64,000 bases of DNA, from the NCBI GenBank assembly GCA_965219205.1, contig CBDCMQ010000005.1:68338-132337 (forward strand). Direction: 5' to 3'. Shown here piece after piece: positions 3,678 through 51,865 of this stretch. The notes under the pieces were generated by a model. The model was given only the letters and a program-made list of their open reading frames with translations. It had not been told where the DNA came from and did not search any database. Within the stretch, counting starts at the first letter, position 1; each line of letters opens with the position of its first letter. This stretch comes from Dehalococcoidia bacterium (GTDB lineage Bacteria > Chloroflexota > Dehalococcoidia > DSTF01 > WHTK01). Made by a program: the position numbers and the translations under genes.

Positions 3678-5099
3678 TCACTTCTTCTTCGGGATCGTCC
3701 GGGTCCCCAGGTACACGGCCCAAACTTCTCCGTTCGTGTCCCGCAAGAAGCGGAGCGGGCCTGTTCCCGGTATCAGGAACCTGTCCCGTCCAACCGGTAG
3801 GAGAGTCACAGTGGCTTCATCACGTGTCATCCGCAGACTGCCTTCCGCGACCGAGAGCTCCGGTGCCTGGCGTTCTGCCCAGAACACGCCCGTGTACTCC
3901 GCCAACTCCGACGCCTCCATCTCATACTCAGAGAACTCGACCCTCGGCGTCCCAAATGGAAGCCCGAGGACGGCGTTGAGAGCGCCGGTCATTATGCGCG
4001 GCGCCGGCGCAGCCGCCAGGTTCGTCAACGCCACAGCGGTGAAGCCTCTTTCTCTGACCAATGCCATGTCCGCCGCGATCCCCTTGTTGCCACCTCCGTG
4101 CCCGATCAGATCGACGCCGTGGTAGTCCTTGAGCACCTGGAAGCCGTAGCCGAAAGCGGCATCGAGCGGCGTCGCCATCTGGGGGCTGGTCATCATCTCG
4201 ACCGCCTCAGGCGACGCGACGCGAACACCCTTTACCGTGCCTTTATTCCGGTAGACCTCGAGGTAGCGCAAAAGGTCGCCGGTATTGGATGCCAGGCCGC
4301 CGTTGCCGACGATCTCGCCGATGTCGTGCCAGGCTGGTGACTGGAACACGCCGGCGGCCCCGCGCGCGAAGAGGCTGGTGGTGTTCTCGTGTTTCGCGAC
4401 CATCTCCGCCTGGGTTCCCGTGTGCTCCATCCCCAGCGGCTGCCAGATGTTCTCGCGAAGATACGGCACCATTGGCTTGCCGCTCACCCGTTCGACGACG
4501 CCCTGGAGTAGAGCGAAGCTCTCATTGGAGTAGGAGTGGTGGCTCTCCGGCGTCCCCAGCATCTCAAAGTACGCCTCGGCAATAAGCGCAAGTAGCCCGT
4601 TGTAGTCGGTGATGTCCTTCGCCGCGTACTCAGGTGTGAAGAAGGCCGACGGCAGCTGCTGGCCGTGAAGTTTCTTGATGTCCGGGTCGCGACGCATGCT
4701 CGGCCCACGGGCATGCACCAATAGCGGTTCCTCGGGCAGTCCGCTGGAATGAGACATCAGGTGGTGGAGGGTGATCGGCGCCTCCGATTTCGGTCGCGGC
4801 ACCCGGAACTCCGGCAGGAATTTGACCACCGGGTCGTTGACTGACAGGTTGCCGGCGTCCGCCAGCTGCATGATCGAAAGCGTTGTGAACGACTTCGTCA
4901 GCGAGCCGATGCCGAAGATAGTCTCCGGTGTTACCGGCAATCCTCGCTCCCGGTCGCGGAGTCCGTAACCACCCTCGTAGACAGTCTCACCATCGAGTGC
5001 GACCGCGACCGCGAGCCCCGGCGTCTCGCTCTCGGCCATCACCTGGCGATTAAACGCTTGGAATTCGGGAACCCATGCCGGCTGATTCATTACTGACAC
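3678..5099 (-). CDS. serine hydrolase, beta-lactamase/esterase (class C-like, PBP-related) family
   Basis: 473 aa with SxxK motif (GSLTKSF) and YxN motif (YSN). Confidence 0.85.
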   Translation of the reverse strand: MSVMNQPAWVPEFQAFNRQVMAESETPGLAVAVALDGETVYEGGYGLRDRERGLPVTPETIFGIGSLTKSFTTLSIMQLADAGNLSVNDPVVKFLPEFRVPRPKSEAPITLHHLMSHSSGLPEEPLLVHARGPSMRRDPDIKKLHGQQLPSAFFTPEYAAKDITDYNGLLALIAEAYFEMLGTPESHHSYSNESFALLQGVVERVSGKPMVPYLRENIWQPLGMEHTGTQAEMVAKHENTTSLFARGAAGVFQSPAWHDIGEIVGNGGLASNTGDLLRYLEVYRNKGTVKGVRVASPEAVEMMTSPQMATPLDAAFGYGFQVLKDYHGVDLIGHGGGNKGIAADMALVRERGFTAVALTNLAAAPAPRIMTGALNAVLGLPFGTPRVEFSEYEMEASELAEYTGVFWAERQAPELSVAEGSLRMTRDEATVTLLPVGRDRFLIPGTGPLRFLRDTNGEVWAVYLGTRTIPKKK

Positions 5100-5648: not shown

Positions 5649-7446
5649 CTAGGCGGCGCTGGCGAAGGTGTCTGTCTGCTTAATCTGAAACTGATACCAG
5701 CAGTTGAAGACGAACCATTGCCAGGCTTCGGCAATGGCTCGTTTTCTCCCTTGCCGGATGTTCTTATCTAACCAGCGAAGGTAGCTCTGCGTCACAATTC
5801 TATCATCAGCGAGTAGATTCAGGCTCGGCACCAGCATTCGGTTCAGCCAGCCAGGAATTGGCGCGCTCGGGAAGGCTTCGTGTTCCCGCTGATTGAAGTC
5901 GATCTGGAGGACATCACGGTAAGACTCTTTGAGCAGCGCTTTATCAAAGGCTTTCGAGTCGATTCCTTTGAACTTTGCTGGCACAGACACGGCAAACGAT
6001 GCTAATCGCGCATCCAGGTACGGCGCCCTCTCATCGAGCCCCAGTAAGGGTGGCATGTACCAGTAAGGGTGGCATGTATTGGTAGAAGAGACAGTTGCGT
6101 GATGCTGACCTGAGAACGATTCTGCCTAACGCTGGCCCCTGAACCTGGTCGAGCTCTTCTAATAGTTCGCGGTTTGCCAGTAGCGCTTCATCTAGAAGGG
6201 TCGTTTCGGGTGGGTGGACGAGGGCACGATTCATGCGCTCCCCCTTGAAGTACCTCCCTTTAAGTCTGGCGGACAACGCTTCGTCCAGAGACTCGAAGGT
6301 TATGCTCTCCTGCCCCCTTTGACGAAAAGCGAAAAGCTCTCCAGCTGCCCCGCCATTTATCACTGAGTCCAATCCACCTGCCAGCGCAGCCGTTGCCAAG
6401 AAGTACTCGCTAACGATGCGACCGGCCGAATCGAACGGCTCGTCAATTCGACGGAGTAAGGTGGACAGCAGCTCCGACGTTACTTCGGCCTCCGGGTCCA
6501 CCAAGATGGTTTGCTGCTGCGTCCCCGTAGCTCTCGCAACGCGTTCCGCCCAGGCGATTTCAGACTCACTGCTAGTTCTTCTATAAGCCAGCGTGAAGGC
6601 TTGTGCGTCGACGTGCCCGCTCTCCTTCAACGCGGACAACATCACCGATGAATCGACCCCGCCGCTGAGATACACACCGACCCTTTCAGCATCACCGACG
6701 GTTCGCCGGACCGCCTGCACCAATTCGTCTCGGGTCCGCTGAAGCCAGTAGTCGAAATCCTCCGGTCCGGTCTCTAACGTCGGGGACCAAAAGCGCTTGG
6801 TCTTCGCCCCAGTGAGAGCGAAAGAAATGCATTCGGCGGGTCGAAGCTTGCGAACACCCTTCGCCAGAGTGAACGGCGCAGCCGGATAGCCGTGGGAGAG
6901 GTAGACAGGCAAGACTGTTTCATCGAGCTGCCGGAGAACTGATGGGTGGGAGAGGATAGCCTTAAGCTCAGTCGAGAAAACTAGCAGCTTCCGCTTAGCA
7001 TCGTGATAGTAATAAACCAGCTTGTGGCCCATGGGGTCAGTGCTGATATGTAGGGTCTTTCGCCGCCGATCCCAGAGGAACAGGCTAAAGACGCCGTCCA
7101 TGGCTTCAGGGAAGGCCGTAGTGTTCTCTTCGAAGTGCGCCACGACGGAGCCCGCATGCGGGCTCTTCATGGAAGACGAGCGGCCCTGCGAATGAGTGGC
7201 TGCATCGTACATGTCGCCATCTACAGCCGCCACAACGTTCTCATCCTCGTGCCAGGAGGGAACATCCTTGCGATGGCCGAAGGTCGCAGTATGGCAGTAG
7301 GCGAGAGCAACGCCGTCGGCCGGATCCACGAAGGTCTTTTGGCCGTCTCGCGCCCGGTGCCGCGTCACGTCCAGCATCGCCTCCAGAGCTTCCGCCGAGG
7401 CCAACTGAGGATGGCCCCTGCTCAGAATCCCGCAGATCAGGCTCAA
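5649..7446 (-). pseudogene. asparagine synthetase (glutamine-hydrolysing, AsnB-like), interrupted by a 19-bp tandem duplication
   Basis: N-terminal ..CGIL Ntn-amidotransferase start and PP-loop motif SGGVDSS. The ORFs 6031..7446 and 5649..6056 overlap. Deleting one 19-nt copy gives a single 593-codon frame (YQYMPPLLGLDERAPYLD...). Confidence 0.8.
6049..6086. repeat. perfect 19-bp tandem duplication (2 x ccagtaagggtggcatgta)
   Basis: Read directly: 6049..6067 is identical to 6068..6086. The length is not a multiple of 3. Confidence 0.95.
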
Positions 7447-7702
7447 GGTCCCTCCCTCTGGATGATGACAAGTCAGCCCGAAACAGACTGCAGGAAGTCC
7501 GACCCTATTGCTTCGGCAGGTGAATCATCGCTCAGGCCGGAGCGCTTGTCGAAATTCGCGGCTCAGAGAGAGTCCATCTTCTAGTCGTACAGCCCCTCTC
7601 TCGGTCCTCCGCCGCTTTTGGGGCGGCTTCGGCCTATAGTGGTAACCGTTCGATGCGTAATGGACGCTTTTTTGAGATAGCTTGAAAGGTGATGAACCGC
7701 CA

Positions 7703-50243: not shown

Positions 50244-51865
50244 TTAATCGCTCGATGCTAGGCCAGCATCTCCGGTACTCGGTGGCGAGATCTGTTGCTG
50301 GGCAGCTGCCGTTTCACGGTTCTCACGCGCCTGCTGAGCGCCACCTGCAATCACTGCCCCGAGGCCGGCGCCGAGGTTTACTGCCGGAGGCTCAACTACC
50401 TCTAGCGGGGCATCACCCTCCCCGACATCTTGCCCATCCACCGTGATGACACCGTCCAGCGATTCAACCGTCACGCTAAGCAATTCAGAGCCATCGAATG
50501 TCTCTGTTATCAGGGCCGTCTCGCCGGGGTCAATGACTACGAGAACGATTGTCCCGTCAACCGGAATCTCTATTTCGGCCGGCCCTCCCAGTTCGGTTGT
50601 CACCGTAGAGACAGCCTGTGGATCTGTAAGCACATAAGTGCCGGCACGCAGCCAGTAGAATCCGCTCTTGCCGTCGAGTCTGATCAGGACGCGTTGGAAG
50701 AAACTGCCGCCCGTCACTACAACCCGCACGCCAGCGGGGTTGGCAGCCTCCGTTATTGCAACACCCATGCCAGCCGGAACGCTGACCATTGATCCTGCGG
50801 TGGCGCCGCCGAGTCCAAGGTCGGAGAAACGGCTGCTGGCAGTAGTCGGAGTTTCATCCACGGTGTCGTCGATGCCATCACCGTCCTCGTCCACACCAGG
50901 GCAGCCGTCAGCATCAAGGACACCATCCAGATCTTCTGGATCGCCTGGGCAATCGTCGGAGCCGGTGCAGGCGGAGGGACCCACGCCGGGAGCGGCTGGG
51001 TCACATACCCCGTCCCCATCAGCATCTACCTGAGCGTCGGAGCAACCACCGGCGTCAACCGCGACAGCCCCCGTGCCGGGGCAGTCATCGCTGCCCGTAC
51101 AGGCCGAGGGACCTAAGCCGGGAGCGGCTGGGTCACAGACCCCATCACCGTCCGCGTCAACTTGGGCGTCGGAACAGCCGTTGCCGTCCACCACTGTGGC
51201 CGCAGGCGTGCCGGGGCAAAGGTCGCTGCTGTCTGGAACGCAGTCGCCGTCGGTAAGCACCACGGCCCCGACCTCGCGTATGCGCTGGTTGTTAGTATTC
51301 GCGATGAAGATATTGCCGGAGCCGTCCAAGAAAACACCCTGGGGGCTCCCACCTGTGCGGTGGTGGCCGGGATACCGTCGCCATTGAAGCCCGCCGCGCC
51401 CGTGCCGGCCACGGTGCTGATCAGGCCGGTGGCCGCGTCTACCTTGCGGATGCGATTGTTCGTCTGATCCGCGATGAAGATATTGCCGGCGCCATCCACA
51501 GAAACGCCGCGTGGGTTGTGCAGACGCGCGCTTGTGGCGGGGATCCCATCGCCGTTGTAGCCGAATGTGCCTGTGCCGGCTACCGTGCTGATCAGGCCGG
51601 TGGCCGCGTCCACCCTGCGGACGCGATGGCTCGTCTGATCCCCACTGAAGATATCTCCGGAGCCGTCGACAAAAACACCTCGTGGGTTGTGCAGATTCGC
51701 GGATGTGGCGGGGATGCCGTCGCGGTTGACGCCGGATGTCCCCGTGCCGGCTACGGTCCTGATCACGCCGGGCTGTGCAAAGACCGTCGTGGCCAGGACG
51801 AGCATGCCGAGCGTTAAAGCCAGCAACCAGAATGACGTTCTGCTTTTACGCAAGCGTGGAATCAT
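50244..51865 (-). CDS. secreted NHL-repeat / thrombospondin-type-3 (Ca-binding DxDxDG) repeat protein, interrupted by a 1-nt frameshift
   Basis: Signal peptide (SFWLLALTLGMLVLATTVFA). Four NHL-like units (IRTVAGTG..G..GDGIPATSA.L..PRGV.VD..GNIFIAD..N.RIR.V). Two copies of a ~37-aa unit, CSDAQVDADGDGVCDPAAPG.GPSACTGSDDCPG. The ORFs 51113..51865 and 50244..51329 join if the run at 51337..51339 has one more base. Confidence 0.75.

Follow-up and report, generated by a model that had tools for sequence, protein, structure and literature searches.

The β-lactam and carbapenam synthetases, described relatives of the asparagine synthetase AsnB, keep an AsnB-like N-terminal domain without the catalytic cysteine, and the SAR202 bacteria are known for paralog expansions. 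Genes can be closed by short tandem-duplication frameshift mutations, which arise by slipped-strand or template-switch events, or by changes in unit number at simple-sequence contingency loci. Here we describe an AsnB-family gene that is split by a perfect 19-bp tandem duplication. It lies in a 64,000-nucleotide stretch of a Dehalococcoidia genome, which we call the window (assembly GCA_965219205.1, contig CBDCMQ010000005.1, positions 68,338 to 132,337; C5:68338-132337 in the contig-and-position coordinates used below). The genome (G000) comprises 2.98 Mb in 9 contigs and is 88% complete. The split gene is probably a recent, real and naturally occurring loss-of-function allele of a dispensable paralog.

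The unit CCAGTAAGGGTGGCATGTA is present exactly twice in the window, as perfect head-to-tail copies at 6041-6059 and 6060-6078; Tandem Repeats Finder reports 6041-6078 with period 19, 2.0 copies and 100% matches. The chance expectation for such perfect duplications in 64 kb is about 2e-7. The period-19 match ends at both edges of the 38 bp, that is, junction microhomology is zero. A preliminary description of this DNA gave the repeated sequence correctly and placed it eight bases too high, at 6049-6067 and 6068-6086. It also reported that the gene is split into overlapping minus-strand open reading frames (ORFs) of 471 and 135 amino acids and that removal of one copy yields a single AsnB-like frame of 593 codons, and both statements are borne out by the features of the locus, given here in window coordinates:

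7451..7455, minus strand: Shine–Dalgarno-like GGAGG, 4 nt upstream of the TTG start (7446-7444), read from the sequence.
5649..7446, minus strand: complete disrupted AsnB-family gene, 592 amino acids if the unit were single-copy.
6031..7446, minus strand: upstream fragment of 471 amino acids with a TTG start, carrying an apparently degenerate class-II amidotransferase-like domain, the PP-loop SGGVDSS and the first two thirds of the synthetase domain.
6060..6078, minus strand: copy 2 of the 19-bp unit, perfect, with no microhomology past the 38 bp.
6041..6059, minus strand: copy 1 (in plus-strand order) of the 19-bp unit CCAGTAAGGGTGGCATGTA, coding strand TACATGCCACCCTTACTGG, which encodes Y-M-P-P-L-L.
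5649..6056, minus strand: downstream fragment of 135 amino acids with its ATG inside the second repeat copy, carrying the GLDERAPYLD motif (R467, P469 and D472) and the C-terminal helices.

The duplicated unit corresponds to residues 457-462 of the protein, and the 19 added nucleotides shift the frame by +1 after residue 462, so that the 471-residue ORF ends with nine out-of-frame residues (VHATLTGAR) and a TGA. The two ORFs overlap by 26 nt. With one copy of the unit removed, a single 592-residue frame (593 codons including the stop) reads ..FYQYMPPLLGLDERAPYLDARL.., and across the former junction ..NCLFYQYMPPLLGLDERAPYLDARL... The Pfam Asn_synthase match, divided in the broken gene between the long ORF (profile positions 2-141) and the short ORF (234-353), then becomes one continuous stretch over positions 2-352 of 354. 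Programmed +1 frameshifting across the 26-nt overlap was considered and rejected, as inspection of the codons from TAC ATG CCA to GCT CGA TGA revealed no known slippery or stop-adjacent motif.

The repaired protein matches Pfam Asn_synthase (PF00733) with 102.8 bits (cut-off 21) and GATase_7 with 48.3 bits (cut-off 25). Every NCBIfam match falls below its curated cut-off: the asparagine synthase model TIGR01536 gives 174 bits (cut-off 267.1) and the AsnB model PRK09431 gives 82.9 bits (cut-off 499). The PEP-CTERM amidotransferase and lasso-peptide cyclase models, like PRK09431, score much lower relative to their cut-offs than TIGR01536. Judged by its sequence, the gene is a member of an undescribed clade in the known Asn_synthase superfamily. 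The AlphaFold model of the intact protein has a mean predicted local distance difference test (pLDDT) of 93.2 and a predicted template-modelling score (pTM) of 0.94. Its top Foldseek matches are 7YLZ (TsnB9), 1CT9, 1MB9, 1Q15 and 6GQ3; TsnB9 is the best match both by fold (E 3.4e-26, TM 0.73) and by sequence (5.9e-20). A literature search on SAR202 asparagine synthase, or on metaMDBG frameshifts in marine assemblies, found no paper.

In the AlphaFold model, the break falls at the end of helix 436-461, just before strand 465-467, which places it within the synthetase domain rather than where two domains meet. Immediately downstream of the duplication, GLDERAPYLD aligns with the G-x-E-x-R-x-P-F-L-D of TsnB9 and Escherichia coli AsnB. 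Just past the break, R467 does not vary among 55 homologs, and P469 and D472 hardly vary; at the PP-loop SGGVDSS, the same set of homologs has invariant residues in S261, G263 and S266 and nearly invariant ones in L260, G262 and D265. Because the break precedes the conserved motif, the 471-residue product lacks part of the synthetase core, namely the GLExRxP(F/Y)LD motif and the final 130 residues of the synthetase domain, and is presumably inactive.

The age of the lesion can be judged from conspecific assemblies. A cluster look-up returned six related sequences, the two products of the window among them. The 471-residue product of the window is encoded on a 199,122-bp contig. A second 471-residue product, with the same tail YMPPLLVHATLTGAR* (VHATLTGAR) and the substitution E325A, is encoded on a 1,648,147-bp contig of another assembly, which also encodes an identical 135-residue ORF. 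The look-up further yielded a pair of 235 and 350 residues on a 39.8-kb contig. Comparison with sister populations, which the preliminary description had proposed as a check, found a one-copy intact allele at a near-identical locus: a 592-residue protein identical to the repaired one (P0124) is encoded on contig_37 of ENA ERZ25072587 (L009), a contig that matches the window at 99.5% identity along 9.8 kb (22 mismatches, 4 gaps). The gene itself, 1,779 bp at L009:4001-5779, differs from its counterpart in the window by the 19-bp duplication and by nothing else. The duplication must thus have arisen after these strains diverged, in keeping with the very recent event that had been suggested. A third conspecific locus, L080 (ERZ25067264 ctg803396_7x_l), has one copy of the unit and a nonsense change, Q236* (CAG to TAG), together with six missense changes and one synonymous change.

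Intact, nonsense and duplication alleles are thus all present among conspecific assemblies; only one-copy and two-copy alleles were seen, each in different assemblies. The exact repaired protein on a conspecific contig, and full-length homologs that are single proteins of 573-604 amino acids, contradict the alternative that the two halves are naturally separate genes; relative to these homologs the frame is disrupted, as expected of a young pseudogene with an intact allele in a close relative. Pattern scans for either allele (flanks with a gap of 0-19 nt) gave 0 matches in JGI metagenomes and GTDB genomes, and a related-locus search of genome contigs with the intact protein returned no relatives.

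The genome carries about 17 Asn_synthase loci and has eight close paralogs of this gene (52-55% identity), of which two are intact and six broken, with the present gene counted among the broken:

C3:250446 and C7:33393: intact close paralogs.
C9:241635-243419: close paralog with an in-frame TGA.
C9:68234-70012: close paralog with an in-frame TAG.
C4:160584-162373: close paralog with a TAA and a frameshift.
C9:287181-288909: close paralog with one frameshift.
C9:41316-43107: close paralog with two frameshifts.

The five broken copies other than the present gene thus hold one TGA, one TAG, one TAA and four frameshifts in all; long-read indel errors do not create nonsense codons. Reassignment of a stop codon as the cause was rejected, as each of the three stop codons occurs once. 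Most genomes of the same genus are without any member of the clade, and the one that has it (G012) also has broken copies. This patchy presence, together with the broken copies, argues that the family is accessory and decaying. We infer that the gene belongs to a family that has expanded in this lineage, as one of about eight close paralogs in a marine, SAR202-like Dehalococcoidia genome, and that it is dispensable, which the absence of the subfamily from most same-genus genomes fits. Independent lesions occur both in the same gene (Q236* in L080) and in its paralogs. With most copies of the clade decaying, the genome offers a snapshot of birth and death in paralog expansions.

We propose that a replication or repair error duplicated a 19-bp segment in tandem inside this divergent AsnB-family gene and that the resulting frameshift after residue 462 would leave a truncated, inactive product. 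In a dispensable and redundant family, the loss of activity would make the duplication a neutral or nearly neutral step of paralog decay rather than a regulated device. The phenomenon itself would then be ordinary, one more young frameshift allele of a redundant gene, and the duplication that first drew attention would matter little.

The N terminus of the protein is less ordinary. It starts M(TTG)-S-L-I-C-G-I instead of MCGI, as the preliminary description had pointed out. About 20 of about 20 full-length members of the close clade start with MSLICGI or MSFICGI, and more distant homologs start with MCGI. The M-S-L-I-C-G-I start, mostly on TTG, is seen clade-wide, in the window (7432-7446, minus strand) and in the paralogs at C3:250446, C7:35177, C9:243419, C9:68234, C4:160581, C9:287181 and C9:43107. 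A start-type codon stands first in each of 11 copies from this genome and in one ortholog (TTG 6, GTG 3, ATG 2, CTG 1), and the leader codons vary synonymously (Ser AGC/AGT, Leu CTG/TTG/CTA, Ile ATC/ATT), which indicates that the four leader residues are translated and conserved. The same description had read this leader as a possible propeptide before the nucleophile cysteine. In a MAFFT alignment and hidden Markov model of 72 MCG-starting homologs, however, the clade aligns gap-free from I4 on, with residue 4 at profile position 4. Extrapolated to the N terminus, this register puts Ser2 on the nucleophile cysteine and Cys5 on a position that varies between Ala and Cys (MCGICGI in P0028 is one case). 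The same register is given by three full-length NCBIfam models that include the methionine, TIGR03108, NF033535 and NF006949. A propeptide before Cys5 was rejected on these grounds for a Cys-to-Ser replacement at position 2.

The glutamine pocket has changed as well. Arg49, Asn74, Glu76 and Asp98 (E. coli numbering), the glutamine-binding residues of E. coli AsnB (1CT9), align to His, Asp, Asp and His, through the replacements of RRLSIID by CHTATFG, NGEIYN by DGDMYD and SDTE by PHAG. With Ser2 at the nucleophile position and the pocket residues replaced, the N-terminal domain looks like a degenerate or repurposed glutaminase domain, as in the β-lactam and carbapenam synthetases. The alignment points to a non-glutaminase domain, or possibly to a serine that serves as the N-terminal nucleophile. 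The Ser-for-Cys N terminus and the rebuilt pocket are the only features of the gene that invite specialist follow-up.

The duplication is not the only one of its kind in the genome. A scan for perfect two-copy tandem duplications with a unit of at least 10 bp found 70, a density of 23.5 per Mb where chance predicts about 1.3 per Mb. A transposon footprint or target-site duplication was rejected as their source because their lengths range continuously from 10 to 51 bp. The length is not a multiple of 3 in 41 of the 70, and for 17 of them the removal of one copy extends an open frame by more than 50 codons. About one quarter have at least 4 bp of junction microhomology, compared with 1.6% expected, an excess that fits real slippage. 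Six relatives (1.69 Mb sampled, including fragmented and probably short-read assemblies) have 13.6 duplications per Mb, yet only 2 frame-restoring cases. No housekeeping gene is among the duplication-broken genes that were checked with Pfam. Gene-breaking or domain-splitting duplications elsewhere in the genome are as follows:

C3:388077, 37 bp: DUF3179 protein, single Pfam domain split.
C3:662466, 13 bp: type I restriction R subunit, single Pfam domain split.
C3:676192, 10 bp: ADP-ribosylglycohydrolase, single Pfam domain split.
C9:113983, 10 bp: AcrB-family pump, in which the domain match spans the duplication and the repaired frame is still truncated.
C2:162291, 16 bp: disrupted methyltransferase gene, Pfam match on one side of the duplication.
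C9:796303, 16 bp: disrupted methyltransferase gene, Pfam match on one side of the duplication.
C3:452349, 11 bp, three times: res helicase.
C5:185852, 15 bp: gene-breaking duplication.

Several observations weigh against a real allele. The density of gene-breaking duplications is about 5 times that of the six relatives (p ~0.013), and either real decay or a technical fault of the assembly could account for the excess. For four further genes broken by duplications, the fragments turned up on this genome's own contig and nowhere else. In about 190 cases, two neighbouring ORFs on the same strand match successive stretches of a single longer paralog, some of them in insertion-sequence-like families (for comparison, 611 intact ORFs of at least 250 amino acids have a full-length paralog), and this heavy load of split genes makes the general sequence quality doubtful. 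The independence of the 1.65-Mb contig from this assembly is inferred solely from its size and one amino-acid difference. An assembly or consensus artefact would mean that the organism is single-copy and that the second copy was added when pieces of a long-read contig were joined or polished. Besides the split-gene load and the enrichment over relatives, it would account for the zero flanking microhomology, as expected of a mis-trimmed overlap, and it fits with the single-copy state of both conspecific loci compared (L009 and L080), with private 1-bp indels in conspecific assemblies and with low coverage tags such as _7x_ in the record names of related assemblies. We nevertheless consider an artefact unlikely. 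The identical broken product, one amino acid different, is encoded on the 1.65-Mb contig of a second assembly, and errors of joining or polishing, if random, would not strike one base twice in assemblies that show other differences. Perfect duplications are also common in the relatives, far above chance; the junction microhomology seen across the genome is a signature of slippage; and the Pfam-confirmed broken genes leave housekeeping functions untouched. The split-gene load is probably part long-read consensus error and part real decay; clusters of other broken genes include numerous members from other assemblies, fragmented in different ways. An exact look-up of three further duplication-broken genes in repaired form gave no record, which is uninformative because start sites or single-nucleotide polymorphisms may differ. 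As a practical matter, conclusions drawn from the absence or splitting of a gene in this genome need read-level confirmation, given the number of split pairs and gene-breaking duplications.

The duplication had also been proposed to act as a reversible on/off switch, in which slippage would add and remove the 19-bp unit often enough to be of use and so toggle the enzyme in the population. One-copy and two-copy alleles do coexist in near-identical strains with the gene otherwise unchanged, precise loss of adjacent perfect direct repeats is possible, and the res helicase gene of the same genome carries its 11-bp unit three times. However, the tract is 2 × 19 nt and not several copies of a short (1-9 nt) unit, no allele of three or more copies is on record, and the gene encodes a cytoplasmic enzyme paralog, neither a surface nor a restriction-modification function. 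The same gene is irreversibly stopped in L080, most paralogs are irreversibly dead from unrelated lesions, and unrelated genes are struck by duplications of many lengths, as a general mutational process would do. A switch is thus very unlikely. The wider proposal, that perfect 10-40 bp tandem duplications provide frequent and precisely reversible off/on switching of accessory genes in SAR202-type populations, strikes us as highly improbable. If true, at least 10 genes of this genome, the AsnB-like gene included, would have been caught in the off state; the switched genes would be restriction enzymes, methyltransferases and redundant catabolic or amide-forming paralogs; and the result would be population-level contingency without classical simple-sequence repeats. 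We give the least credence to a functional split enzyme, which would require that both ORFs be translated, the second by re-initiation at the copy-2 ATG, and that the two pieces, each with YMPPLL, associate. An in-frame ATG is indeed restored by the duplication, 20 nt before the stop codon of the first ORF and within the 26-nt overlap, and both fragments are still open. Yet no Shine–Dalgarno-like sequence precedes that ATG, the break interrupts the synthetase core instead of separating domains, and no homolog is split at the same point. A young loss-of-function allele of a dispensable paralog accordingly remains the reading that we prefer.

Several further features of the locus and genome were recorded in passing. 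A beta-lactamase-family serine hydrolase gene (window 3678-5099, minus strand; L009:6338-7757) is intact in the window (473 amino acids) and in L080 (470 amino acids) and is split in L009 into 389 and 80 amino acids by one extra C (AACCGCC versus AACGCC). Near its 5′ end, at window 4999-5014, the hexanucleotide GCGACC (coding GGTCGC) differs by one in-frame unit between conspecific assemblies, and each of these assemblies has private 1-bp indels. A 171-bp tandem repeat occupies window 51363-51771 (2.4 copies, 81% identity; Tandem Repeats Finder). Elsewhere, two very long homopolymers, possibly technical and possibly real, sit within frames that are open apart from them, at C3:303582 (G24) and C3:664262 (C30), and long perfect tandem arrays occur at C9:315910 (9 bp, about 31 copies), C3:223431 (17 bp, about 14 copies) and C9:175745-176250 (49/98-bp array). 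The same 80-bp unit, in 3.6-4.6 copies, is found at C1:27887 and C6:69963 and may mark an unresolved repeat or a contig join.

Compared with known systems, the lesion most resembles short tandem-duplication frameshift mutations. As in those, a short unique segment with a length not divisible by 3 has been copied perfectly, head to tail, the frame shifts at once and meets a premature stop, and close relatives retain an intact allele. The lesion differs from them in the lack of flanking microhomology, and it is known from assemblies of an uncultured population alone. Simple-sequence contingency loci also vary in tandem-unit copy number between close strains, and this number sets the frame open or closed. 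Here, by contrast, a 19-nt unit is present once or twice, the gene class is atypical, and the gene and its paralogs are also found irreversibly knocked out.

The protein shares with AsnB (E. coli 1CT9, human ASNS 6GQ3 and TIGR01536) the two-domain fold (Foldseek E 4.5e-19 to 1CT9), the PP-loop SGGVDSS, a GLExRxPFLD-type motif and the Pfam Asn_synthase and GATase_7 domains. It departs from AsnB in having Ser2 in place of the N-terminal nucleophile cysteine, in the replacement of all four glutamine-pocket residues and in a TIGR01536 score well under the cut-off (174 bits versus 267). From TsnB9 and the β-lactam and carbapenam synthetases it is separated by an identity of only 15-19%, by the lack of a biosynthetic gene cluster around the gene, and by membership of a clade with its own conserved MSLICGI, HTATFG, WHED and AAVDGDIYD motifs. 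The β-lactam (1JGT and 1MB9) and carbapenam (1Q15) synthetases resemble it in their AsnB-like N-terminal domain without the catalytic cysteine, and the hydroxyamidotransferase TsnB9 (7YLZ) is closest to it by sequence and by fold. SAR202-type genomes would thus hold an expanded and patchy AsnB-like clade with serine for cysteine and a rebuilt glutamine pocket, the nearest solved relative of which forms hydroxamates.

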